DNA of 25,477 bases from a virus (lineage: Duplodnaviria; Caudoviricetes), in IMG/VR virus record IMGVR_UViG_3300049139_000009, positions 1 to 25,477 of that record; one strand, 5' to 3'. The position numbers were made by a program, and so were the translations under genes. This document shows positions 2,436 to 23,609 of the stretch, piece by piece (position 1 is the stretch's first letter; the number at the start of each line of letters is the position of its first letter). The notes under the pieces are model-generated. The model saw only the letters and a list, made by a program, of their open reading frames with translations, did not search any database and had not been told where the DNA came from.

Positions 2436-5240
2436 TTAGGCGGGAGACAGCTCCCACGTTGTCTCCCATAGCCGCGTGCCGTGTGACCACCTGTGGGCGA
2501 TGGCCTCGATGAAGAAATCGGCGTCGATGCCAAACCCGGTGTTGTGGTCCGCCACCAACCGGATCTTGTCTCCGACCCTGCGGCGGGCAGCCTGCGCCCG
2601 GTAAGCCGCCGACTTGGTTGCGTAGAACGACAGCGACACGATCGGCCGGTCGTCGCCGTGCGTGGCCAACACCAGGTCTGCGTACACCTGCGCGTCAGTG
2701 GACGTCGCAAACAGGTTGGCCGGGTTGGTGTAGGTCCGGATCGCGTTGTGTTCGTCCTGTGAGCTGAAGTCGTCGGCCTGGACGAGCTGCTGATCGCCCT
2801 GCACCAGCGGAACCCCGGTCACCTCGATGTTCTCGTGAACCTGCGTGGTGCCGCCGAGCGAGGCCACGTAGCCGATGGTGAACTCCGGGTTCGCCCCGGA
2901 CGGAGTGCCGCCAGTCACGGGCGTGACGGCACCGGTGGCCGGCCCACGGATGGCAATGGTGCGAGCGTCCCAGTCGACCCAGTAGTCCCCAGTAGAAGCG
3001 GACAGGGCGAACGTTCCCGGATTTTCCGATGCAAGCCCGTTCACCTGCCGTTGAGCCGTCCCCACGATCATGCCGTAGGTAATGCCGTCGCCCAAGTCAT
3101 CCTCGGCCGATGCGGACTCGCCGTTCGTATAGCCGGAGGGGATACCGCTATGCGATACGGACCCATCGGCGACCTCGTACTCGGCCTGGTACGCCGCGAT
3201 GACGAGGGCGGGTAGCGCGCCCCACGGGAACGCCAACGACGGAGGATTCGGGCTGGTGTCCGCCCCGCCCGTGAAACCGCCCACCGCTATGCCGTCGAGA
3301 CTGCCATGCCAACCGGTGACGTGAATGACCTGGACGGCCCACGGAAAGTCGCCGAAGGCGGCGAGGGCTACGTTCGTGCCGCCCTCGACGCCAGTCGCGA
3401 TCTTCGCCAAGACGAGGGGAGAGTACGAGACAAAGGACCAGCCCTCTGGCCAGTCGGCGGTGACGGAGCAGACGATCAGTAGGAGATCTCCCGCGTTCAC
3501 CGTGGAGGGCATGGCGACGTCGAATGTTCCACTGGCCGAGCTGGAGGACTGGACGTCCACGCTGATCCCGGTAGGCGGACCGGGTGCGGCGACGTTTCGC
3601 GTGTGACCCGTCCACCGTACGACCGTCCCGTCATAGGCGGCCTGCAACGCCTGCGTCTCACCGGAGGCGAGCGAGTACGGGCCAGGGTCGGTGAACAGGA
3701 TGGCCTCCGCGCCCTCCAGCCACGGGGACACGCCCGCCACAACCCGGTTGAACACCTCACGCCGCCAGTCGTACGGCTCCAACCGGTGATAGCCGAACTG
3801 GCCACCGGGGGCATCCGTGAACGCCGCCAGGGCCAGCGCACCGTCGCGGGCGGACCGCGACGCGAACGAGATTGGCCCTTCCTGCGCCTCGTACAGGAAC
3901 CCGAATTCGGTTTCCTCGACGCGCCGCGCCACCTCCATAGCGCTGGTTCCGTCGAGCGCGAAGGCCCCGGTCGAGACGTCGCCCTCGTCGATGACACCCG
4001 GCGGATGCAGCAGATTGGAGCCCGCCAAGACGTTGCCGACGAGCAGTCCCGTCTTGCGGCCGGTGATGGACGCGGGCGGCGAAATGTGCTGTGTGGCCAG
4101 CTTGGACAGCCAGCCTTCGCCGGTCAGGGTCGCGATCTTCTCGGGGCCAGGGGAGACGGACGCCGCCACTTCGGCTATGTCGCCCGTCCACAGCACGCCC
4201 TCGACCTGTTCGGGCAGACCGGCCCAGGCATAGAGGTTGTCGATCTCCGGGCGGTTGTCGTCGGTGAACCATTCCGCGTAGATGCCGACCGATTCGGCGC
4301 TCTCGTTGATCGTCGTCCCGACGAACAGGGGGACGCCCTCTAGGTACGCGACCACGATCGAGCCCTCGACGAGGACGCCGATCGTCGCTCCTGAGTACAC
4401 CTCGACGCCGAGCCCGGCGACTTGGAATTCCACCCCCGCCACAACGTTGACCAGCCGGAGAGACGAGGTCGTTACGTCGAGTACGCACACGCTGTAGTTG
4501 TCGCTGTCCACGTACCGGTAGACGATGCCGGCCTCGTTGCCGATGATGCCGAGGACGCTGATCTGTGCCTGCACGTAGTAGTCCGCGGTCCCGACATCCA
4601 CGACGGCGATGTGTGTGTTGCCCTCGCTGGTCGCGACGGCCCGGCTGCTCTCGATGGTGAAGTCGTTGGCGAGCGGTTCGACGTAGGTCAGGCCGCCCTC
4701 TTCGCTTCCCAGCGGCCCATTTGCGCGCCGGAACCGGTCCCTGGTCAGGGTTGCCGGGTCGGGGTTGGCCGCGCCGGCAGTGCGGACACGGACCTTCCGC
4801 CCGGTCTTGAGCGAGAACGGGGCGGCGTTCAGCGGCGACGAGGCGTTGAAGTAGGAGAACCGGTCATCATCGTTGCGCAGCGACAGTCGCAGCTTGCCCG
4901 GACCGGACTTGCCGGTGAGCAGCGACGGCCAGTCTCGGCCGGTGAACGTCTCCGCCGACAGCACGTAGGCGGTGATGTCCTCCCCTGGCTCGTCGAAGTC
5001 GCCATCGTTGTCGAAGTCCCACTCGACGATGATGTCCGACGCGGCTTGGGGTGCGCTCGCCTTGACCGATGCGGCGCCGCCGATCTCAACCCCGCCCGAG
5101 CCGGTGGCCACCCCCACGTAGAGGAGAATGTCGACATCCGCAGTGCCGCCGATCTCGACCCCTCCGGAGCCGGTGGCGGACCCGATGAGGTCGAGTTCTT
5201 CGGATGCGAGGAGCTGAAACAGAGCGGCGTGCCCGGCCAC
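2436..5240 (-). CDS. Large tail-tip (baseplate hub/Tal-like) protein with inserted lectin-like and beta-sandwich domains
   Basis: 934 aa. Hub-like segments EDITAYV...GR...PGKLRLSLRNDDDRFS...GRKVRVR and a C-terminal RVGDKIRL...FFIEAIAHRW...WETTWELSPA; located downstream of the tape measure. Confidence 0.75.
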   Translation of the reverse strand: MAGHAALFQLLASEELDLIGSATGSGGVEIGGTADVDILLYVGVATGSGGVEIGGAASVKASAPQAASDIIVEWDFDNDGDFDEPGEDITAYVLSAETFTGRDWPSLLTGKSGPGKLRLSLRNDDDRFSYFNASSPLNAAPFSLKTGRKVRVRTAGAANPDPATLTRDRFRRANGPLGSEEGGLTYVEPLANDFTIESSRAVATSEGNTHIAVVDVGTADYYVQAQISVLGIIGNEAGIVYRYVDSDNYSVCVLDVTTSSLRLVNVVAGVEFQVAGLGVEVYSGATIGVLVEGSIVVAYLEGVPLFVGTTINESAESVGIYAEWFTDDNRPEIDNLYAWAGLPEQVEGVLWTGDIAEVAASVSPGPEKIATLTGEGWLSKLATQHISPPASITGRKTGLLVGNVLAGSNLLHPPGVIDEGDVSTGAFALDGTSAMEVARRVEETEFGFLYEAQEGPISFASRSARDGALALAAFTDAPGGQFGYHRLEPYDWRREVFNRVVAGVSPWLEGAEAILFTDPGPYSLASGETQALQAAYDGTVVRWTGHTRNVAAPGPPTGISVDVQSSSSASGTFDVAMPSTVNAGDLLLIVCSVTADWPEGWSFVSYSPLVLAKIATGVEGGTNVALAAFGDFPWAVQVIHVTGWHGSLDGIAVGGFTGGADTSPNPPSLAFPWGALPALVIAAYQAEYEVADGSVSHSGIPSGYTNGESASAEDDLGDGITYGMIVGTAQRQVNGLASENPGTFALSASTGDYWVDWDARTIAIRGPATGAVTPVTGGTPSGANPEFTIGYVASLGGTTQVHENIEVTGVPLVQGDQQLVQADDFSSQDEHNAIRTYTNPANLFATSTDAQVYADLVLATHGDDRPIVSLSFYATKSAAYRAQAARRRVGDKIRLVADHNTGFGIDADFFIEAIAHRWSHGTRLWETTWELSPA

Positions 5241-6630: not shown

Positions 6631-7050
6631 TCAGTCCCCCGTATCGGCGAGCGTGATACGCGGAGTCACGCGGATTGCTTCGCCTTCGAACTCGATGACC
6701 AGCGGGGATGTGAACTCCTCAAACCACTGCAACGCCCCGTCCGATGTGCGGGTGACGTAGTACCCATAGAGGGTCTGCGCGGTCTGGTCGGTGCTGCTGA
6801 CGAACGTCTGCTGTGCGTAGGAGCCCGTGCACGGGTCGCCCGGCGTCGTCGTCCACGAGCCGCCCGTCAGCGCCTTCGACGAGTAGCCGGTGAACGTCGC
6901 CGCCGTGAAGTCCGACTCGTCAAGCGCTTCGATCTGCCCGGCGGTCAGCCCGTCCGTCACGTCGTTCTGGAACAGGTGAAGGGTGTAGCCGACAGCGAGG
7001 ATCGCGTCCAGGAACGCCTCTTCACCCTGGTTGACCACCACGAGCGTCAT
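6631..7050 (-). CDS. Small beta-sandwich virion/tail-fibre-associated protein (Gp80-like), copy 1
   Basis: 139 aa from MTLVVVNQGEEAFLDAIL; ATGA overlap with the upstream stop at 7047-7050; motifs ATFTGYSSKAL, QQTF, YGYYV. Confidence 0.7.
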   Translation of the reverse strand: MTLVVVNQGEEAFLDAILAVGYTLHLFQNDVTDGLTAGQIEALDESDFTAATFTGYSSKALTGGSWTTTPGDPCTGSYAQQTFVSSTDQTAQTLYGYYVTRTSDGALQWFEEFTSPLVIEFEGEAIRVTPRITLADTGD

Positions 7051-7331
7051 CGGGAACCCCTCACTGCTTGCGCCTCGTCGAGGCGTTCCGGGCACAGGTG
7101 CCTGATGTGGACGTCGATGTCGATGCCGGCCGACTGGTTGGCGGACACCGCGAATGCGAACAGCTCGGCCGGTGAGTGGCACAGCGCCCGCATGTTGTCG
7201 CGGAGCTTCGGCCAGTCTTCGACCGGGCCGCGCGTCTGCTCGACGTCGGCCCGGTGCGCCTGCTCGTCGTAGGTGTGGCCGCCGCATGCGGTCAGTGCCA
7301 CCAGCAGCAGCCCAGCAGCTAGCGCCCTCAT
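7047..7331 (-). CDS. Small lipoprotein
   Basis: MRALAAGLLLVALTA|CGG has a basic N-region, hydrophobic H-region and LTAC lipobox; ATGA overlaps at both ends. Confidence 0.8.
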   Translation of the reverse strand: MRALAAGLLLVALTACGGHTYDEQAHRADVEQTRGPVEDWPKLRDNMRALCHSPAELFAFAVSANQSAGIDIDVHIRHLCPERLDEAQAVRGSR

Positions 7332-9547
7332 GCCGTCACAGCCCCTCTGAATCCGCCGTTAAGGAACTCGTCCCGGATGAGCGCCACCAGGTCACGGTCA
7401 GAGCGGATGGACCCCTGTACGTACAGGTTCACGGTCACCCCGCCGCCGCCCCCGGTCTTGCCGAGCATGTTTTCCGACTGGCCGTTGGGGATCACGGTCG
7501 AGCCGAACGGCAACCGCACCAGTTCGGGGCCCTGCTCGCCGACGAGGGTCATGTTCGAGCGCGGGCCGCCACCAGCCGCGCCAGTGATACCGCCGTGCGC
7601 CCGGTTCTTCGCCGCGAGGGCAGCGTCAGCAGCCGCGCTGCCGTTGTAGATCGTGTTCACGGTGACGGACACGGTCTTCGACTTGATCGACGCGAGTTGC
7701 GCCTTGGCCTGCGCTACCGCCGTCTTGAGTTGGGCGATGTCGGCGTTCAACTTCGATCGGCGTTCTCGGGTCAACTCCGGATTCTGCAACTCCTTACGGG
7801 CCGTGGCCAGCCTCGACTGGAGCGTGCTGATCTCGGTGTTGATCGCCGACTTGTACTCTTTGACCAGCTTCGGATCGCCGAGCGCGACGATAGCTTCGGC
7901 CTTCTTCGACAAGAGCTGCGAGATTTCAGCGTTGAGCGTGGCTCGACGCTCTTTTGAAATCTCAGGGTCCATGAGGGCCGTACGGGCAATGTCGAGCTTC
8001 TGCTGAAGGTCGAAGATGTTCGCCTTCAGCTCGACGGCCTTGCCCGCCTCCTGCGCTGCCCGCTTCCACTCGCCGACCTTGGCGATAGCGGTGTCGAGCC
8101 CGGCCACCATCTTGCGGCCGATCTCTTCCATGCCGGGGATGCTGCTGATCGCCTCGCCGACCGTACGCAGTACGCCGAGCACCTTCTCTGCGAAGCCCAA
8201 AATGATCTCTGTCGCGCCGACGAAGACGCCGGAGAGCACCACGCTGAGATTGTTGACGACGCCGAGCATCGTGCCGAAAAAGCTGATCAGTCCGGAAATG
8301 GCGCTGATCACGGCAGGTATGGCTTGGAGCAGGCCAACGAAAAGCGTGGAGATCGTGGACTTGTTTTCCGACACATTTCGTGCCAAATCGGTCAAAGAGG
8401 ACGCTATGCCAGAAAAGACGCCCTTTAGCTGTGGTCCGATCTGATTGAGCAGGCCATTGAAGGCGTCCGTCAGCGGTTGCATGGCGGGGGCAAGTTCCTT
8501 CAGCCCGTCACCCAGGTTCGATATGAAGTCCTGTAGCGGCTGCTTCATGGACGCGAACGCGTCAGCGAACGCGGGCTTGAACTCGGCTCCGACTTCCCGC
8601 ACCTTCGCCCGGACCGTGTCGAGGACGCCGACCAGCGGTTGCGCTACTTCCTTGAAGCCGTTCGTGATGTCGCGGTTCAAGTCGGCGAACTGCTCTCGCA
8701 GCTTCTCGGCCTGCTTGTTCGACTCCGCGACGCGCTTCTGTTCGGCCTTAGACCATTCCTTGTTGATCTCCTCGACGTGCATGAGCATGCTCACGCCGAG
8801 CTTGGCCAGACCCGCACCGAAGCCGAGCACCAGGGCGCCGCCGATGAGCGCACCAGCGGCACCCGCCGCCGGGATGGCGGCACCAGCCACCGCCCCAATG
8901 AGCGCCGGACCGGCGGCCGAACCAGCGGAGCCAAGCACGGACTTCAGCCCGCCGACGAGCGCACCCGCGCCCGCTTGCGCCGCGCTGGACATGCCGGACA
9001 TCAGCTTCGCGCCGATGCCACGGCCGGACCCGTCCGCTTCGCCGCCGAGCGCACCCCACTGCCCGATCAGGAGACCGCGCACAAGGTCAGTTCCTCGAAG
9101 CACGCCGGTACGCAGCCCGCCGGCCAACCGGTCGCCGATGCTGCCGCCCGCACGCTCGGCCTCGCCCTCGGCTCCCCGGAACGTGTCGGTAAGCGACCCC
9201 TGCACCTGCGACGTGCCAGCAGACACGGCGGACACGAGCCCGGACGCCAACCGCTCGCCGATGCTCTTGCCCGCCCCATCGGCCTCGTCGGCGACGCCTT
9301 GGAAGGTGGACGAGAACGAACCCCGGATGCCCTCGGCGCCGCCTTCTGCGGCGTTCTGCGCACCCTCGGCCAGACTGGTACCGATCTGCTTGCCCGCCGC
9401 GTCTGCGTCGCTCACAGCGCCCTGCATGTGGCCACTGATCGACGACCGCACCTTCGCGAACGCGCTGTTCGTACGGGCCGTCACGCCGGAGAACAGCGCC
9501 CCGGTCTTGTCCTTGCCGGTGATGACGATCTCAACTTCGTTCGCCAC
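7328..9547 (-). CDS. Tape measure protein (~739 aa)
   Basis: Likely GTG start at 9547 (MANEVEIVITGKDKT). Ala/Gly-rich helical repeats, a central hydrophobic stretch and a C-terminal VGEQGPELV motif; directly follows the chaperone genes. Confidence 0.92.
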   Translation of the reverse strand: MANEVEIVITGKDKTGALFSGVTARTNSAFAKVRSSISGHMQGAVSDADAAGKQIGTSLAEGAQNAAEGGAEGIRGSFSSTFQGVADEADGAGKSIGERLASGLVSAVSAGTSQVQGSLTDTFRGAEGEAERAGGSIGDRLAGGLRTGVLRGTDLVRGLLIGQWGALGGEADGSGRGIGAKLMSGMSSAAQAGAGALVGGLKSVLGSAGSAAGPALIGAVAGAAIPAAGAAGALIGGALVLGFGAGLAKLGVSMLMHVEEINKEWSKAEQKRVAESNKQAEKLREQFADLNRDITNGFKEVAQPLVGVLDTVRAKVREVGAEFKPAFADAFASMKQPLQDFISNLGDGLKELAPAMQPLTDAFNGLLNQIGPQLKGVFSGIASSLTDLARNVSENKSTISTLFVGLLQAIPAVISAISGLISFFGTMLGVVNNLSVVLSGVFVGATEIILGFAEKVLGVLRTVGEAISSIPGMEEIGRKMVAGLDTAIAKVGEWKRAAQEAGKAVELKANIFDLQQKLDIARTALMDPEISKERRATLNAEISQLLSKKAEAIVALGDPKLVKEYKSAINTEISTLQSRLATARKELQNPELTRERRSKLNADIAQLKTAVAQAKAQLASIKSKTVSVTVNTIYNGSAAADAALAAKNRAHGGITGAAGGGPRSNMTLVGEQGPELVRLPFGSTVIPNGQSENMLGKTGGGGGVTVNLYVQGSIRSDRDLVALIRDEFLNGGFRGAVTA

Positions 9548-9764
9548 TACCGCCCACCCCCTGACCACTGAGTTCTTCGAGAGCGAGCAGGCGTAGGAAC
9601 TCGGCGTCCTCGTTGAGGAGCTGCGAGGGCAGACAGTGGAAGCGCTGGCACATGGTCAGCACCCACCTGGCGCGCTTTAGCTCGCGAGGCTCTGTGACGA
9701 CACGTCCATCGGGATCGACGCCGCCAGGGACGGCTCTCCACCTGGCGACGTCTGCGGCAAAGGG
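9531..9764 (-). CDS. Tail assembly chaperone -1 frameshift extension (lambda gpGT analogue)
   Basis: The -1 frame is open from the heptamer C CCT TTG (9758-9764) to 9531 and encodes ...MCQRFHCLPSQLLNEDAEFLRLL, typical of gpT-like domains. Confidence 0.75.
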   Translation of the reverse strand, partial: PFAADVARWRAVPGGVDPDGRVVTEPRELKRARWVLTMCQRFHCLPSQLLNEDAEFLRLLALEELSGQGVGGSGERS

Positions 9765-10099
9765 GCGGGAACACCGCTGACCGCGTCCGCCCACGCCGTG
9801 ATGATGGTCATCACGAAGTCGAGGTCCTGCGCGAGCAGGCCGTCAATGTCGGCAGGGACGGGCTGGTCGTCGTCGTCTTCGAGGTTCCACGACACGAGCA
9901 CTTCGGCGAACCGTTCGAGCAGGTCCCGAATGCCCTCCATCTCCTCGGCCGTGGGAGTGGCCGAGAGCTTCAGGTCGAGCAGCGGAGCCATGTCGAGCAG
10001 TGCGCCCGTGGACATGGACCGCGCCTTCACTTCGAGGCCGTCCAGGTCGTCGGTGAACACCAGCTTGTAGACCTTGCCGGGCCGCTTGAACCCAGCCAT
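9677..10099 (-). CDS. Tail assembly chaperone (gpG analogue)
   Basis: 140 aa from MAGFKRPGKVYKLVF; VSWNLEDDDDQPVP motif; between tail tube and tape measure. Confidence 0.85.
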   Translation of the reverse strand: MAGFKRPGKVYKLVFTDDLDGLEVKARSMSTGALLDMAPLLDLKLSATPTAEEMEGIRDLLERFAEVLVSWNLEDDDDQPVPADIDGLLAQDLDFVMTIITAWADAVSGVPAPLPQTSPGGEPSLAASIPMDVSSQSLAS

Positions 10100-10100
10100 G

Positions 10101-10511
10101 TCAGGCCGACCAGGTAGGCACGGTGCCATCGGAGAGGACGCCGGGCGCCGACCATGTGAGCTCGCCGCCCGCGCCGCGAGACAGCGCGTAATCGGTGTAA
10201 AGCACCTCAGGCGCGAGCGTCTGACCCGACACGGTGATCGTGGTGGTACGCGCCACGCTGGTCGAGGACACCGTCTTGAGCACGACGTGAGACATGCTGG
10301 CCGCGTCGTTGAAGACGCCGTTCAGCGTGATGCTGAAGTCGGCGAGCAGAAGCAGCCGCTCCATCGCGCTCTTGTCGATGCCGGTGACGTCCTGCACGGC
10401 GCGGGGCGTCGAGAATTCGAAGTTTGTGACGTCGTTACGGATGTCGCACACGCTGCCGGTCGAGTCGTCAACGGACAGGGCGCTCCACGCGAGGCCGGAT
10501 TCCTTGGCCAA
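10101..10511 (-). CDS. Major tail (tube) protein, short form
   Basis: TTG start (MAKESGL...), 136 aa; QDVTGIDKSAMERLLLLADFSITLNG tube motif; immediately upstream of the chaperone. Confidence 0.8.
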   Translation of the reverse strand: MAKESGLAWSALSVDDSTGSVCDIRNDVTNFEFSTPRAVQDVTGIDKSAMERLLLLADFSITLNGVFNDAASMSHVVLKTVSSTSVARTTTITVSGQTLAPEVLYTDYALSRGAGGELTWSAPGVLSDGTVPTWSA

Positions 10512-12621: not shown

Positions 12622-13662
12622 CTACACCCCTCGAATCCGTGCCTTGCGCCCGTAGGCGGTGTACGCCTGGTCGCGGATGTCTCGAAGCGCACGGCCGGCC
12701 GCCTCGCGCTGGTTGTCGCCGGACCCGACCGTGCGGGCGTAACCGGACTGGCGTTGCAGCAGCGTGTTCAGCGCCTCGGCGAGGCACAGTTCCCGCACCA
12801 GGCCGGGCAGCTCATGACGGGCAATGGCGGTCGCGTCGTCATGAGCCGCTGCAGTGGTGCCGAGCGCGCCACGCTCGACGGTCAAAGCGCGCGGCCCGTA
12901 GACGGCCGAGCCGGTATGGGTAGCCAAGACCGACCCATCCCATGCCCTCTTGACCGTGATCAGGTTGCCCGCGATGTCGACAATCAACATCCGCTCGGAG
13001 TCGAGTAGCAGCACCTCGTCCACCGCGTACGCCGTGCCGTCCTCGACGAGGACAGACACGTCAGCGTTGGACGCGGTCAGGTCGGCCTGCAACGTCTGCC
13101 CAGTGCTAGCCATTGACCTGCCGGTGATGACCATGCGCTCGTCTCCGATGCGCAGGATGTCGCCTACGCCTACCGCTGCGGAGTCGGACACGGTCACGGC
13201 GGTCGAGCTGGTGTCGAGGGCTGCGGCGAGTGCCCCGGCGGGTGCTTCGCCCGCGCTGTAGCCGAACACGCCTGTGATGGCGATGGCTCGTTGGTGGGTG
13301 CCGCCGGACCCGAACGCTGACGACGAGTCGATGTCGATCTCGACGTGCGTGTATGGCGGGCCGTCGTCGGGCCGTAGGAAGTAGTCGGACGAGGGGATCT
13401 CCTCGTCGGCCACCATGAGGACCGCCACCTCGATCAGCTCGTGCTGGTCGAGCCACAGACGCCACGATCGGGCGCGCTGCGGGTTGGGCCAGTCGAAGTA
13501 GCGCGTCCCGGTCCACGGGTAGAAGCGGCGATGTAGCAGCCCCTCGATGGTGCGCGAGGCGGAGTCGATGGCCTCGTCTACCTGGCGGTCACTGCGGGCC
13601 GTCAGCTTCACGTCAAGGGCGGCCTTCACCCGTTCCCTGGTGGTGTACCAAATGCTGCTCAC
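12622..13662 (-). CDS. Head-to-tail adaptor with inserted beta domains
   Basis: 346 aa; adaptor-type N-terminus (YTTRERVKAAL...AIDSASRTIEG...RRF), AIAITGVFGY, and C-terminal PGLVRELCL. Confidence 0.75.
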   Translation of the reverse strand: MSSIWYTTRERVKAALDVKLTARSDRQVDEAIDSASRTIEGLLHRRFYPWTGTRYFDWPNPQRARSWRLWLDQHELIEVAVLMVADEEIPSSDYFLRPDDGPPYTHVEIDIDSSSAFGSGGTHQRAIAITGVFGYSAGEAPAGALAAALDTSSTAVTVSDSAAVGVGDILRIGDERMVITGRSMASTGQTLQADLTASNADVSVLVEDGTAYAVDEVLLLDSERMLIVDIAGNLITVKRAWDGSVLATHTGSAVYGPRALTVERGALGTTAAAHDDATAIARHELPGLVRELCLAEALNTLLQRQSGYARTVGSGDNQREAAGRALRDIRDQAYTAYGRKARIRGV

Positions 13663-13690
13663 GGGTGCCTCCCAGGGCGGTCAGGCGTCT

Positions 13691-14020
13691 TCAGTTGTCA
13701 GCCGGTCCAGGTCCAGCCGTCGAACCTGCAGCGGAGTTGCCCTTGCGGGTCCGCTTGGAGTGGTTCGCCGTCGTTGGGGCAGGCCGAGGGCGCGGCGTCT
13801 CGCTCGGCTTCTCGCTCGGCTGCGGCTTCTGCGGCGATGTCGAGGAGCTGTTCCCAGGCGATGGCGGCACCTCCTCGGGAGTGGTGGACGCGCCACCATG
13901 ACGGGTGATCTTCGGCATGGGCTGTCCCTGCTCTACGAAGTCGGTCGATTGGCAATGAGGGCACCCAGGCAGCCCCACCGCGTAGGCGGTGGAGCAGCCC
14001 AGGCACAGCCACAGAGCCAT
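13691..14020 (-). CDS. Small Zn-ribbon protein with disordered Pro/Ser-rich tail (109 aa)
   Basis: TGATG coupling at 14018-14022; WLCLGC...GCPHC (2 x CxxC), then MPKITRHGG and a low-complexity tail. Confidence 0.65.
   Translation of the reverse strand: MALWLCLGCSTAYAVGLPGCPHCQSTDFVEQGQPMPKITRHGGASTTPEEVPPSPGNSSSTSPQKPQPSEKPSETPRPRPAPTTANHSKRTRKGNSAAGSTAGPGPADN
13698..13862 (-). CDS. Nested out-of-frame 54-aa protein (WEQLLDI...CPNDG...CRFDGW) with apparent ATC start
   Basis: Strong SD GAGGAGGT (13869-13876), 6-nt spacer, then ATC GCC TGG GAA; protein-like helix plus paired CxxD motifs. Confidence 0.6.
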   Translation of the reverse strand: MAWEQLLDIAAEAAAEREAERDAAPSACPNDGEPLQADPQGQLRCRFDGWTWTG

Positions 14021-14439
14021 CAGGCCCCGAGCGCCGGCAGATTCGCGGGCGTCCGCTGGACGGCGAGATCGTGCACGATCGCCTTGACCAGACCCGACGC
14101 GCCCGCCGAGCACTTCACGTACACCTTGCCGTCCGGCAGCGCCGTCGCCGGGACGTAGAACACAGCGGTGCCGGACGCCACCACAACCGCGTTAGATGCG
14201 GTCTGCGTGGTGTCGACCCACGCGGCCGAACCGTTCGTCGCCGTGTTCGTGGACTTCCTAGTGACGATGTTGCCGGGGGTCGCGTAGCTGCCGCCGAACG
14301 TGTCCGCCACGGTGAGCGTGAACGTGTCCGCGCCGGTTACAACGAACGTCACACCGGCCGCGTCCTTCAGGCTGACGCCGATGCCGGCCGCGATCGGGAC
14401 CACGTTGAAGAGACGGCCGAGACCTTCCTGTCCTGCCAT
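14020..14439 (-). CDS. Putative capsid decoration/cement protein
   Basis: 139 aa, beta-rich, directly downstream of the major capsid gene; AGAGGAAGG SD. Confidence 0.6.
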   Translation of the reverse strand: MAGQEGLGRLFNVVPIAAGIGVSLKDAAGVTFVVTGADTFTLTVADTFGGSYATPGNIVTRKSTNTATNGSAAWVDTTQTASNAVVVASGTAVFYVPATALPDGKVYVKCSAGASGLVKAIVHDLAVQRTPANLPALGA

Positions 14440-14483
14440 GGGTGTTGCCTTCCTCTTGGGGTGTTAATGCCAGTTCGGAACGG

Positions 14484-14515
14484 GCCCCGCCGGGGAGTTG
14501 AAGGCCCGGCGGGGC
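14484..14515 (-). terminator. GC-rich hairpin after the major capsid gene
   Basis: gccccgccggg-N10-cccggcggggc, perfect 11-bp stem just past the capsid stop; no clear U-tract. Confidence 0.55.
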
Positions 14516-14524
14516 TGGCGTACG

Positions 14525-15853
14525 TCAGGCCCGAGCCGCGATCTTGACGAACGGGGACAGGGTGTTGGTGCCCTTCTTGGGCGTGATGGCGCTGTTCAGC
14601 CACGGCCGACCGTCAGCACGCTGGATGATGCGGACGGCGGTCTGGTCGGTGTCGAACTCGACGTGCTCGGACGTCGCCATTTGCATCTGCTGACGGTCGC
14701 CGATCAGGTAGTACGACAGGTCGACGAAGTTGAGGTCGCCCGCGTCGCCGAGGGTTTCCGCCTTCTCCGTGAAGATGACCGGCCTGCCGAGGATGCTCAT
14801 CGGTGGGCCCTCGACGCCGTTGTTGAGCCAGATGGCGCCGCTGCCAGTGCCGCCGGGCGCGGCCATCGTGGCGAGCTGCGGGAAGGTGTCGATGTTCGCG
14901 ATCCACACAGCGCCGCCCAAGCTCGACGGCAGCATGCGGGCGTACATCCCTACGACGTTCTCCCAGGTGATCGTGTCGGCGGCCTGAGAGCCGCCCTTGG
15001 CCACGGACACCGCAGCGTCGGCCTTGAGGAAGCCCAGCGGCTCACCCACGCCAGTGCCGGAGAAGAACGCGGAGTCCTCGGCGAACGACAGGGCAAGCGG
15101 CCACTTCTGCGAGAGAAACGCCTCGAAGCTGGTGATGGAGTCCGCGAACAGCTCGTTCGGGACGATCGAATAGCCCGTGAGCTTCTTCGCGTCGAGGACC
15201 ACCCTCCCGAACTTGGCGGACGACTTCTGGAGTGCGCCAGCCTCCTCTGTCCAGTACGCGATCATGCCGCCGAACACGGAACCCGCGTTCGTGGTCGAGT
15301 CGATCGTGGGGAACGGGACGCGGGCCGACTCCATCGGCACGACCATGGCGCGCGGACGCACGATGGACGTCTCCAGCGACGTCTGAAGCAGGGTGGACCG
15401 CAGCGACTCGGGGACGAGGAAACCACCGTCAGACGGGACGGCCGAACTGTAGTCGTTGCGGATCTTCGCGCGCTTCGCGGACGCCTCGGGCGACTGGCTG
15501 TTGTACCAGATGGTGCGCAGGTAGTCGGCGGTGTCGGTGAACTCGGCGTCCAGGACAGCGCCCAGCGCCTTCGGGTTGTAGCCAGCGCCGCGGTCCTTCG
15601 GAGCCGGACGGGACGGGTCGAGGTTGAGCCGCTTGACGTTGTCGACCTGGTTGTCCTTCAGCCACTCGGCGAGAACCCGCTGAGTCTCCTCACGCACCTG
15701 AGTGGCGACCGACTCGTCCTTGGCCTTGATGGCGTCGGCGTAGTTCTTCACGAACTGGCCGAAGGTGCCCTCCTTGAACAGGGCCTCGACCTTGGTCCGG
15801 TCCGACAGGATCTCTTCCAGCTCGGCCGGAGCCGTGGGGACGGTGGTGGTCAT
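14525..15853 (-). CDS. Major capsid protein (HK97 fold)
   Basis: 442 aa; DGGFLVPE, WTEEAG, AKKLTG, GTGVGEPLG, ILGRPV and RADGRP motifs. Confidence 0.95.
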   Translation of the reverse strand: MTTTVPTAPAELEEILSDRTKVEALFKEGTFGQFVKNYADAIKAKDESVATQVREETQRVLAEWLKDNQVDNVKRLNLDPSRPAPKDRGAGYNPKALGAVLDAEFTDTADYLRTIWYNSQSPEASAKRAKIRNDYSSAVPSDGGFLVPESLRSTLLQTSLETSIVRPRAMVVPMESARVPFPTIDSTTNAGSVFGGMIAYWTEEAGALQKSSAKFGRVVLDAKKLTGYSIVPNELFADSITSFEAFLSQKWPLALSFAEDSAFFSGTGVGEPLGFLKADAAVSVAKGGSQAADTITWENVVGMYARMLPSSLGGAVWIANIDTFPQLATMAAPGGTGSGAIWLNNGVEGPPMSILGRPVIFTEKAETLGDAGDLNFVDLSYYLIGDRQQMQMATSEHVEFDTDQTAVRIIQRADGRPWLNSAITPKKGTNTLSPFVKIAARA

Positions 15854-20791: not shown

Positions 20792-21973
20792 TCAGGCGTC
20801 GGGGGTCACGGCCGGGCCACGGAACGCCATCTTCAGCGCCTCTTCCTCGCTGACGCGCGGGCCGAGGATGTTTTGAGCCGCGTCGGAGGAGCGCACCACT
20901 TCGTACGTCTCGCACATGTCCGTGATCGGGATCAGTTCGTCCTCGGCGTCCTCCCACATCGGGCGGACGATCGGGACGTTGTCCTCGTTGAACGAGTGGA
21001 TCGGGTGAGCCACCGTGAGCGCCTGCCCGTCCACGGTCGTCATGTGGGCGATCGCAGTGAAGCCGGACCCGTCACCGCCCATGAGCATCTGGCCGAGCCC
21101 CGACTTGGCCATCGCGTGCGACATCATCTCTTTCGTCTGCTCGTAGAACTCGTGCCGCCACGGGGACAGGAACGTCATCGCCCGCATGGCGGCGGAGTGA
21201 CCGAACAGGTACCGGGTGATCGGCCGGCCGTCGTACTCGTAGCTGATCGAGTAGATGTCGCTGCGCTCGTCCTCTTCCTCTTCCATCCAGAACAGGATCA
21301 GGTCCTCGCAGGAGATGCCGGACACGGCGGAGAAGTCCTCCATCCACATCAGGGTCTTCAGCCCGTCCTCGTCGGCCTCGTCGTCGAAGGCGAGCGGCAC
21401 GCTGCCGTAGCCGAACCAATTGAGCGTCTGGCCGTGGCCGGGGACGAGGCGGTGTTCGTGGCAGAACGCGGCGACCGCGCGGGAGTAGGCGAGAGTGTGG
21501 GGCAGCATCGGCTGCAGGCGGTTCCTCGCCTCGATGAACTCGCTGAATCCCTGGCCCCACGTGTTTTCGTCGCGGAAGCAGTGCGAGAGCTGGTCGAGCT
21601 CGACCACGGTCATTGTGTCGCCGGAGGCGGGGGCGTCACCCCACGGGATGTTGGCGACCGAGATCAGCAGATCGGCGTGACACCCCTGGTCGAGGTCGCA
21701 GCCGCACACGAGGTCGTAACCGCGAAGCTCGTCCATCGCGTCCCTGATCGTGATGCGAGGCAGGTCCGGGCGGGCCTGGACACCCTCGTCGCTGAACAGG
21801 TCGCGCCGATAGGCGGCAAGGGACTCTTGCAGGGTGTACGTGCCGCCGTCCTTGATGGTCTTGTACGGGTTACCCCACCGGCTCGCGCGGGTGACGACCT
21901 TGCTGTTGGCGGGCTTGCGCCACCCCTTGCGCTGGTTGCGGGGCGGCATCTGGTGGCGGATGGGCTGGGTCAT
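20792..21973 (-). CDS. DUF4326-domain protein fused to an acidic C-terminal region
   Basis: VTRASRWGNPY...LRGYDLVCGC...CHADLL is the DUF4326 signature; GGAG SD before ATG 21973. Confidence 0.8.
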   Translation of the reverse strand: MTQPIRHQMPPRNQRKGWRKPANSKVVTRASRWGNPYKTIKDGGTYTLQESLAAYRRDLFSDEGVQARPDLPRITIRDAMDELRGYDLVCGCDLDQGCHADLLISVANIPWGDAPASGDTMTVVELDQLSHCFRDENTWGQGFSEFIEARNRLQPMLPHTLAYSRAVAAFCHEHRLVPGHGQTLNWFGYGSVPLAFDDEADEDGLKTLMWMEDFSAVSGISCEDLILFWMEEEEDERSDIYSISYEYDGRPITRYLFGHSAAMRAMTFLSPWRHEFYEQTKEMMSHAMAKSGLGQMLMGGDGSGFTAIAHMTTVDGQALTVAHPIHSFNEDNVPIVRPMWEDAEDELIPITDMCETYEVVRSSDAAQNILGPRVSEEEALKMAFRGPAVTPDA

Positions 21974-21988
21974 GAGATGCTCCAAGCT

Positions 21989-23066: not shown

Positions 23067-23609
23067 TTAGGCCGCGATCAGGGCGGCGGTGGGGCTGGTG
23101 AAGCGGGTGCGAGGGTCGCCCGTGTAGCCGGGCAAGTTCTGGACGCGCCACATGTGGGCGACTTCGGCGGCCTGCTCAGGGGTGTCGTAGGTGCCCAGGT
23201 GGGTGACGATGCCCTGCGCTTTGCCGTAGGCGGTGAACCGCTTGCCGCTCCTGGCCACGCCCCGGTAGCCGGACTTCGCGGTGCACGCCCGGTTGGCGGC
23301 GTTCTCCTGCGCGGTGGCCCAACGCAGGTTCGCCATGCGGCAGTCGAGCCGATCGCCGTTGACGTGGTCGATGTACCGGCCGTCCCGGACTTCGGCGCCC
23401 ATGATCCAGCGGTGCAGCAGAACCATGGTTCCCCGGTCCCACAAGGCGGCGTAGCCGTGGGAGCCACGGCTGAGCTTGCGGCCGGCGAGGCGGTCGGCAG
23501 CCTCCTCGTCCACCCACACCGGGATGAATCCGTCCGGGGTGGACACGGGGAGCTGCGTGGCGCTGGGGTCATCGAAGCTAAGGGCGGGCTGGAACAGGTT
23601 GGTGATCAT
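23067..23609 (-). CDS. HNH endonuclease with AP2 DNA-binding domain (homing-type)
   Basis: LHRWIMG...IDHVNGDRLDCRMANLRWAT..EN..N followed by SGYRGV...HLGTYDTPEQAA. Confidence 0.9.
   Translation of the reverse strand: MITNLFQPALSFDDPSATQLPVSTPDGFIPVWVDEEAADRLAGRKLSRGSHGYAALWDRGTMVLLHRWIMGAEVRDGRYIDHVNGDRLDCRMANLRWATAQENAANRACTAKSGYRGVARSGKRFTAYGKAQGIVTHLGTYDTPEQAAEVAHMWRVQNLPGYTGDPRTRFTSPTAALIAA

Follow-up and report, generated by a model that had tools for sequence, protein, structure and literature searches.

Organization of the gene A/gene B locus

The window, by which we mean the entire 25,477-nt virus record analyzed here (GC ~66%), is a head module of an actinobacterial phage. Its structural genes are encoded on the minus strand and comprise those for the terminase, portal, Clp-type protease, HK97-type capsid protein and a 139-aa protein, together with gene A, the head-tail adaptor gene and the tail genes (Table 1). 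The ATG of gene A overlaps the stop codon of the 139-aa gene (TGATG), and the gap between the gene A stop and the adaptor start is 28 nt. Tight coupling of these two positions as a general rule was rejected, as the gap varies widely among loci. A sigma-70-type promoter was sought in positions 13400–14700, and none was found.

Table 1. Coordinates of the genes and signals discussed in the text (window numbering)
Feature	Position	Strand	Remarks
Gene B, 54 aa, nested in gene A	13698..13862	-	ATC 13862-13860 to TGA 13700-13698; 54 codons
Putative B start ATC	13860..13862	-	ATC in 108/190 stand-alone relatives; part of Pro-Ser in the A frame
Shine-Dalgarno (SD) sequence of B, GAGGAGGT	13869..13876	-	6-nt spacer to ATC; inside the A coding region; –15.3 kcal/mol
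Gene A, 109 aa	13691..14020	-	ATG 14020 to TGA 13693-13691; Cys4 zinc ribbon, MPKIT motif, linker, overprinted tail
CxxC-x10-CxxC zinc ribbon of A	13952..14005	-	In frame upstream of MPKIT in 97/127 motif hits
Overprinted A tail, rich in Ser/Thr/Pro/Lys	13691..13861	-	+1 frame of B
MPKIT-motif ATG, likely second in-frame start of A	13916..13918	-	Weak SD here, –5.8
Major capsid protein	14525..15853	-	PF05065, phrog_10; context gene
139-aa beta-sandwich protein, probably capsid cement/decoration	14020..14439	-	AF2 pLDDT 93.9; upstream of gene A
Head-tail adaptor	12622..13662	-	phrog_442, E 3e-10; downstream of A/B; most constant neighbor of B

A sequence-only reading had proposed that a second gene is nested in gene A, and its coordinates, SD sequence, 6-nt spacing, lack of a usual start codon and adjacent stop codons were all confirmed in the window. 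The first bases of the A and B stop codons are 7 nt apart, the nearest in-frame ATG, GTG or TTG lies 31 codons upstream of the ATC, and the B frame is open for 85 codons upstream of it. The SD sequence of B is the strongest among the 15 gene starts listed in the window. Because 17 near-cognate codons on the same strand have comparable SD sequences (–12 kcal/mol or better), the window alone is suggestive and does not prove an ATC start.

Probable initiation codon of gene B among relatives

We gathered 264 loci in addition to the window, comprising 80 of the 349 IMG/VR matches, 120 among the pattern matches listed and 64 genome loci. Eleven loci in which no anchor or N-terminal Trp was found were dropped and 54 duplicates were removed, leaving 200 loci, from which 10 actual or possible C-terminal domains of long ORFs were set aside. 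The first codon of B in the 190 stand-alone copies was ATC (108), ATG (49), GTG (31), TTG (1) or ACG (1). A metagenome follow-up set of 43 loci (12 duplicates, 4 skipped and 27 new) added 10 ATC, 2 ATT and 12 NTG starts, with 3 unresolved. CTC and GTC were absent from this position in all copies examined, though an internal Ile position would permit them.

The homologue check proposed for the 54-aa peptide thus yielded relatives in 349 IMG/VR stretches, and inspection of start codons and SD sequences revealed ATC accompanied by a strong SD. It is by this comparison, with ATC in 108 of 190 copies and start-like codons in the rest, that the claimed initiation at ATC was borne out, and we consider it very probable that B is initiated there. 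An upstream canonical start was rejected: at 58 of the 107 ATC loci, the B frame is closed by a stop no more than 6 codons upstream, and no other start is present; at 83 of 107, the next upstream stop in the B frame is reached without any canonical start. At four loci (L127, L141, L164 and L263), residues are inserted before the conserved Trp, and the ATC remains at SD distance.

Natural ATG alleles also exist. In contigs from two other studies that share ~93% identity with the window, the B start site itself reads ATG, and a third contig has ATC. Among the differences listed (20 of 31 differing places), those of the ~93% contigs reproduce P0003, add no stop to A and leave the SD unchanged from that of the window. 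On a tree of two flanking proteins (88 rows, FastTree, B excluded), the ATC/NTG label required 15 changes, compared with 24.7 in shuffles, and at least 9 changes were forced by well-supported branches; this tree gives no direction, and recombination may inflate the count. An assembly error behind the ATC was rejected, as the codon recurs in distinct relatives and in a contig of another study. The contig of run X1 is identical to the window over positions 13400–14300, and X1 may be the origin of the window DNA.

The expectation that standard annotation would miss or mis-start B was correct on both counts: the NCBI record P0179 is gene A with its tail, and P0010, P0022 and P0132 are mis-started calls with spurious N-terminal extensions of B. 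Gene callers lose B in approximately half of the B loci.

Relatives of B were found in prophages of Streptomyces, Nonomuraea, Kitasatospora, Actinomadura, Lentzea and other actinomycetes (64 genome loci, a few of which are MAGs bearing other labels). Judging from these sequences, the nested B cassette is a family-wide trait, present in many phages of soil actinomycetes.

Strength of the SD sequence

The median SD energy was –13.25 kcal/mol at the 108 ATC loci, compared with –7.3 at 72 non-nested NTG loci and –4.6 at 3,170 other ATC triplets. Of the 17 windows compared at each locus, the SD site of B ranked first in 98 of 106 ATC loci, and the aligned spacing was 4–6 nt in 88 of 108. At nine loci picked by eye, in which B starts with NTG and A nevertheless reads through the B start, the median was –10.1, weaker than the –13.25 of the ATC loci (p 3e-5; this and the following p-values overstate independence, as the loci are related by descent).

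Downstream pairing of the SD bases is more frequent in ATC loci (median 5.2) than in NTG loci (2.2). A hairpin that sequesters the SD and is opened by ribosomes translating A was nonetheless rejected: the opening energy did not differ from that of NTG loci (p 0.10), and swapping the downstream halves between loci made no change (p 0.85 and 0.26), so that no specific structure was supported. Folding of 45 nt on each side of the start likewise revealed no locus-specific hairpin.

Predicted fold and role of protein B

A profile search for B retrieved 681 representatives at E ≤ 0.001. In the AF2 model (pLDDT 85.8, pTM 0.46), a helix spans residues 3–21 and two strands (34–37 and 43–45) form a short hairpin knuckle; B is accordingly predicted to consist of an N-terminal helix and a Cys/Asp zinc knuckle (CPND...CRFD). 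That Asp replaces Cys in these paired motifs, as the sequence-only reading held, is supported by natural Asp/Cys swaps at both knuckles: the two Asp positions were Asp/Asp in 298, Cys/Asp in 16 and Asp/Cys in 12 of 332 distinct motif strings. These swaps, together with a His at the first position in Streptomyces phage Dagobah, support a predicted role of the residues as metal ligands.

Searches of PHROGs, Pfam, and PDB sequences and folds matched B to no named family or fold and to no decoration protein. No PDB fold reached E ≤ 0.001, and the best rows were non-significant matches to zinc ribbons in subunits of ribosomes and polymerases. The best viral fold row is unnamed (TM 0.67, E 0.019) and the best VIA Z was 2.3, values that have no bearing on fold novelty. 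A likeness to Rieske proteins was dropped, with weak rows only (E 0.31). The plasmid search gave no match, and the direct phage search was blank; with a relative as the query, it led to Dagobah, the one cultured phage with the same module. The Dagobah protein HUN42_00015 (MT711977), annotated as hypothetical, is a likely B homologue (47% over 49 aa to P0008, E 0.04) and, like B, is encoded directly upstream of an adaptor homologue (46%, E 2e-59). It differs in its start codon, an ATG that overlaps (ATGA) with an unrelated gene upstream, and in its motifs, which read CPVH and CPFA where B has CPND and CRFD. No mass spectrometry was found in the main text available for the Dagobah paper, and no virion proteome in the available text of PMC7650747 and PMC11302927.

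The architecture of longer relatives bears on function. Among the best 150 of the 681 matches, 50 exceed 190 aa and all 50 carry the B module at the C-terminal end, with 13 containing at least two copies. The linkers before the module in long proteins consist of Ala, Thr, Gly, Val and Pro, and a domain scan of 30 long proteins identified DUF4082 in nine (one below the curated cut-off) and LamG in two. All five fusion loci with enough flank occupy the same slot before the adaptor gene, which lies within 1.5 kb downstream of B in 85 of 91 ATC, 56 of 68 NTG and 5 of 5 fusion loci. This layout resembles that of display proteins such as Hoc (PMC7602432), which suggests a virion anchor; from gene order and domain architecture, we somewhat favor a role of B in docking on the phage head or neck. 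As in T4 Hoc and T5 pb10 (PMC7602432), B would combine display domains with a small module encoded in the head gene cluster. It differs from both in lacking a sequence or fold match to them and in its predicted helix and zinc knuckle.

A role of B, also started at ATC, as a non-structural assembly or nucleic-acid-binding zinc protein appears unlikely, albeit to be taken seriously. Small zinc ribbons often bind nucleic acid, and the best structural rows, although not significant, were of that kind. However, fusion to DUF4082 or LamG through Ala/Thr/Gly/Pro linkers is better suited to surface display, and the up to three tandem copies of the module in the same gene slot also argue against this role.

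The long profile matches P0019–P0164 and the loci L095, L119 and L227 represent a large unnamed family of 200–700 aa, encoded between the capsid genes and the adaptor, which has DUF4082, LamG or unknown domains and ends in one to three B modules.

Gene A and its overprinted tail

A family search with gene A gave nothing significant. The zinc ribbon is absent upstream of MPKIT in 25 of 127 motif hits. The first codon of MPKIT is ATG in 106 and GTG in 14 of these 127, and the median SD there is –9.4, compared with –4.3 at 485 internal ATGs. MPKIT is thus likely, on sequence grounds, to be a second in-frame start across the family that gives a short A isoform. MPKIT may also be a docking peptide with variable cargo: one 472-aa protein (P0150) carries it and ends in a B module.

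Two architectures of A were distinguished. The +1 frame crosses the B start in all 107 ATC loci, compared with 45 of 84 canonical loci (a canonical group that still includes some C-terminal-domain loci). Canonical-start B genes have a stop within 12 nt upstream or overlapping in 64 of 72 non-nested loci, and the ATGA of Dagobah is of this kind. The motif-bearing A is the read-through frame in 91 of 94 ATC loci. In the 107 ATC loci, A stops 4–19 nt past the B stop in 78 and inside B in 19. The end of A carries a motif that we take to be SAP/HeH-like, matched by a pattern of our own, in 9 of 38 canonical loci with A stopping at B and in none of 100 motif-defined read-through loci. Its presence together with read-through in L022, and probably in L272, indicates that the two are not exclusive. 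Five related ATC loci (L023, L045, L048, L064 and L092) represent natural cases in which part of the tail has been lost, with the A stop falling within B at the GEPL codon.

Selection in the two frames

We estimated selection in each frame from 20 disjoint pairs of nested loci. For B, pN/pS was 0.50 and omega 0.53 (CI 0.41–0.67, uncorrected); for the A tail, omega was 1.15 (CI 0.90–1.44). B is thus under purifying selection. The A tail is, given this value, not conserved by position and is constrained by composition only. The per-frame check proposed with the sequence-only reading therefore came out in favor of B and against positional conservation of the A tail, and the dual-coding picture needs refinement: B stands as a conserved gene, and the A tail is an overprint rather than a conserved partner. 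In this same-strand nested pair, selection is accordingly found in both frames, by pN/pS for B and by composition alone for A. Across 76 sampled copies, B shows no variation at its two Cys, its two Asp or its GEPL motif.

The compositional constraint is pronounced. Over the 107 ATC loci, the A tail contains one Cys, one Trp and no Tyr in 5,808 residues. Leu codons in nested B genes are 98% CTC and 0% CTG (n=313), compared with 38% and 42% (n=249) in canonical B genes, a group that again includes some C-terminal domains; the CTC share in the adaptor gene of ATC loci is 43.5%. Codons giving Glu, Asp or Lys in the A frame are enriched in nested B (CGA, 51% versus 13%). At 17 loci with the A stop inside B, CTC usage within B falls from 42/45 before that stop to 17/34 after it (p 1.5e-5), and hydrophobic, Cys or stop codons in the A frame rise from 21/522 to 74/473. 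Synonymous divergence of B is lower than that of its neighbors in the same pairs (0.24 versus 0.36, 0.22 versus 0.30 and 0.20 versus 0.27). Antisense and +2 frames are open in 81 and 71 of 87 ATC loci, compared with 37 and 25 of 51 comparison loci. Given that it is the +1 frame that carries the A motifs, we read this as a by-product of T loss at third positions.

Overlap with gene A and the choice of ATC

We consider the overlap with A to be probably the main cause of the ATC start. In relatives whose A ends at B, the start codon of B is ATG or GTG with a weak SD, as in ordinary coupling; where A reads through, the B start is almost always ATC with a very strong SD. By the genetic code, an NTG start would place TGN in the A frame, encoding Cys, Trp or stop, ATT would give Phe or Leu (TTN) and ATA would give Tyr or stop (TAN), so that a polar A residue would be obtained only from ATC (Ser) and ACG (Arg). 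The synonymous codons of B are bent in the same direction, toward a polar A tail, and relax past the A stop. Ribosomes would then start de novo at the ATC, with the strong SD offsetting the weak codon. The likely origin would be a single G-to-C change in an ATGA overlap, which would delete the A stop and create the ATC at once. The base after the ATC is A in 48 of 108 ATC loci, where ATG would make a stop in A. B itself would bind zinc via Cys-x2-Asp pairs and serve as a virion anchor, bare in this phage and joined to lectin-like domains in relatives.

A reads through at L163, the only credible instance of an ACG start, and two read-through loci carry an ATT start. NTG under read-through occurs in the nine loci picked by eye, in L268 and L278 and in the two ~93% contigs. 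The constraint is therefore a bias and not a ban, with Cys and Trp disfavored in A. NTG occupies the B start in 9 of 118 read-through loci, compared with 2 of 646 internal Leu/Val codons, a contrast that fits a trade-off between a gain at the B start and a cost to the A tail.

It had been suggested that an ATC start could hold expression low or make it IF3-sensitive. If the codon served to keep B below the level of A and the capsid genes, the overlap would be a passenger, which we regard as rather improbable. Near-cognate codons yield 1–2% of AUG in E. coli (10.1101/063800). ATC persists across long branches, is also kept where A stops early inside B, and is retained in L230, though its A stops 9 nt upstream. 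On the other hand, the SD is the strongest of its neighborhood, which opposes low output, and the excess of NTG at the start over internal codons is expected if B gains and A pays. L230 still has NTC in 9 of 9 Leu/Val codons, so that its frame change looks recent or erroneous. The weaker SDs of the nine NTG read-through loci accord with dosage tuning too, and both causes may act together. A purpose of low expression or IF3 control is not our first choice because two close contigs have ATG with the SD unchanged among the differences listed, and the overlap suffices as an explanation.

At L230 (positions 3980–4010), the motif-bearing A lies in the B frame and the B codons are of the nested type, which points to a recent indel or an error.

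Alternatives to initiation at the ATC

IS911 orfA/orfB combines an AUU start with a –1 frameshift. Its two ORFs are arranged like A and B: they overlap, the downstream one is read in the –1 frame of the other, and an SD lies within the upstream one. An SD-stimulated –1 frameshift from A into B would produce an A-B fusion in which the ATC is an internal Ile codon. A always crosses the site, B serves as a C-terminal module in natural fusions, and in one natural protein (P0150) the PKIT motif and B are fused in frame. However, no X-XXY-YYZ heptamer was present in 57 narrow-window loci, and XXX stood at a P-site position in 9 of them. The codon is always start-like and never CTC or GTC, ATC alternates with ATG among close relatives, and in the extended forms the ATC tracks the SD and not the Trp. 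We therefore consider a frameshift very improbable. Frameshift stimulators have been described for IS911 (PMC5009743); B differs in having no slippery heptamer and, in the 45 nt folded on either side of the start, no conserved stimulatory hairpin, and in being fully nested. That B is an untranslated shadow of a conserved A tail is barely credible, even though ATC is a weak start, given that selection falls on B residues and not on A positions, that the Cys, Asp and GEPL residues do not vary, and that B remains intact past the A stop.

Comparison with known near-cognate starts

The ATC start of Deinococcus dnaA was shown by N-terminal mass spectrometry (PMC2830850). B resembles this case as a conserved ATC start of a real gene that is mis-annotated in databases; it differs in being a phage gene with a putative start tied to read-through of an overlapping gene, whereas dnaA is a host gene and nesting is unmentioned in the available text of that report. 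The AUU starts of E. coli infC and pcnB (10.1101/063800, PMC2830850) are likewise near-cognate starts of functional genes, but their codon is regulatory (IF3 autoregulation in infC), whereas B has ATG alleles in close relatives. As in infC, pcnB and dnaA, the codon of B stands where homologues have ATG or GTG, an SD lies at working distance and there is no usable canonical start upstream. AUC initiation in E. coli, at 1–2% of AUG (10.1101/063800), is a further precedent for an ATC start. Counting against it, the available text of a Ribo-RET study of M. tuberculosis reports that ATC starts were not generally enriched (PMC9094748).

Both elements, a near-cognate start and a nested gene in a phage, have precedents. 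What appears new is that the two are coupled at more than 100 loci, that the genetic code offers a reason for this and that ATG alleles occur naturally; no earlier description or account of the A/B cassette was found in the literature searched, which covered few subscription papers. Taken jointly, a conserved nested B gene, an SD-led ATC kept by the read-through tail of A and a metal-binding head or neck anchor form what is probably the best explanation of the locus. More tentatively, it may be the protein encoded in the alternative frame that selects the start codon: a disordered tail that excludes Cys, Trp and hydrophobic residues would leave hardly any usable start but ATC, with an extra-strong SD in compensation and a toggle between ATC and ATG among close relatives. 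The 330-nt cassette would then encode long A, short A and B, the last a bare form of a zinc-knuckle anchor with which actinomycete phages display lectin-like domains on the virion.

The few confirmed bacterial ATC starts have usually been interpreted as regulation, and the overlap offers a testable non-regulatory cause, with more than 100 phage and prophage loci that keep ATC and known natural ATG alleles. The family thus provides a natural series for SD strength against a weak codon in Actinobacteria and for selection on overprinted disordered tails. B is an unnamed, widespread small protein and, by analogy, a candidate display anchor for Streptomyces phages.

Neighboring genes

The 139-aa protein is probably, according to its model, a cement protein. 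Its Foldseek rows are weak only (YomS, E 0.015; a phage 7-7-1 capsid chain, E 0.037), and the Atlas lead is Bbp16 for 15% of a cluster (score 0.86). This beta-sandwich encoded after the capsid gene also weakly resembles chains in Milano particle structures. The adaptor has 346 aa, with its phrog_442 match limited to residues 6–158; the middle contains two similar beta-rich repeats that might be involved in collar formation.

Several other minus-strand genes were noted. The region at 9547–10129, before the tape measure gene, is a tail assembly chaperone region with a short ORF in another frame, and a small ORF with a lipoprotein-like N-terminus (LTAC) lies between the tape measure gene and the next tail gene (6631–7287, 7047–7331). 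An apparent two-domain protein whose N-terminus matches phrog_464 is encoded at 20792–21985, and an HNH endonuclease gene (23067–23609) adjoins the primase-helicase gene.
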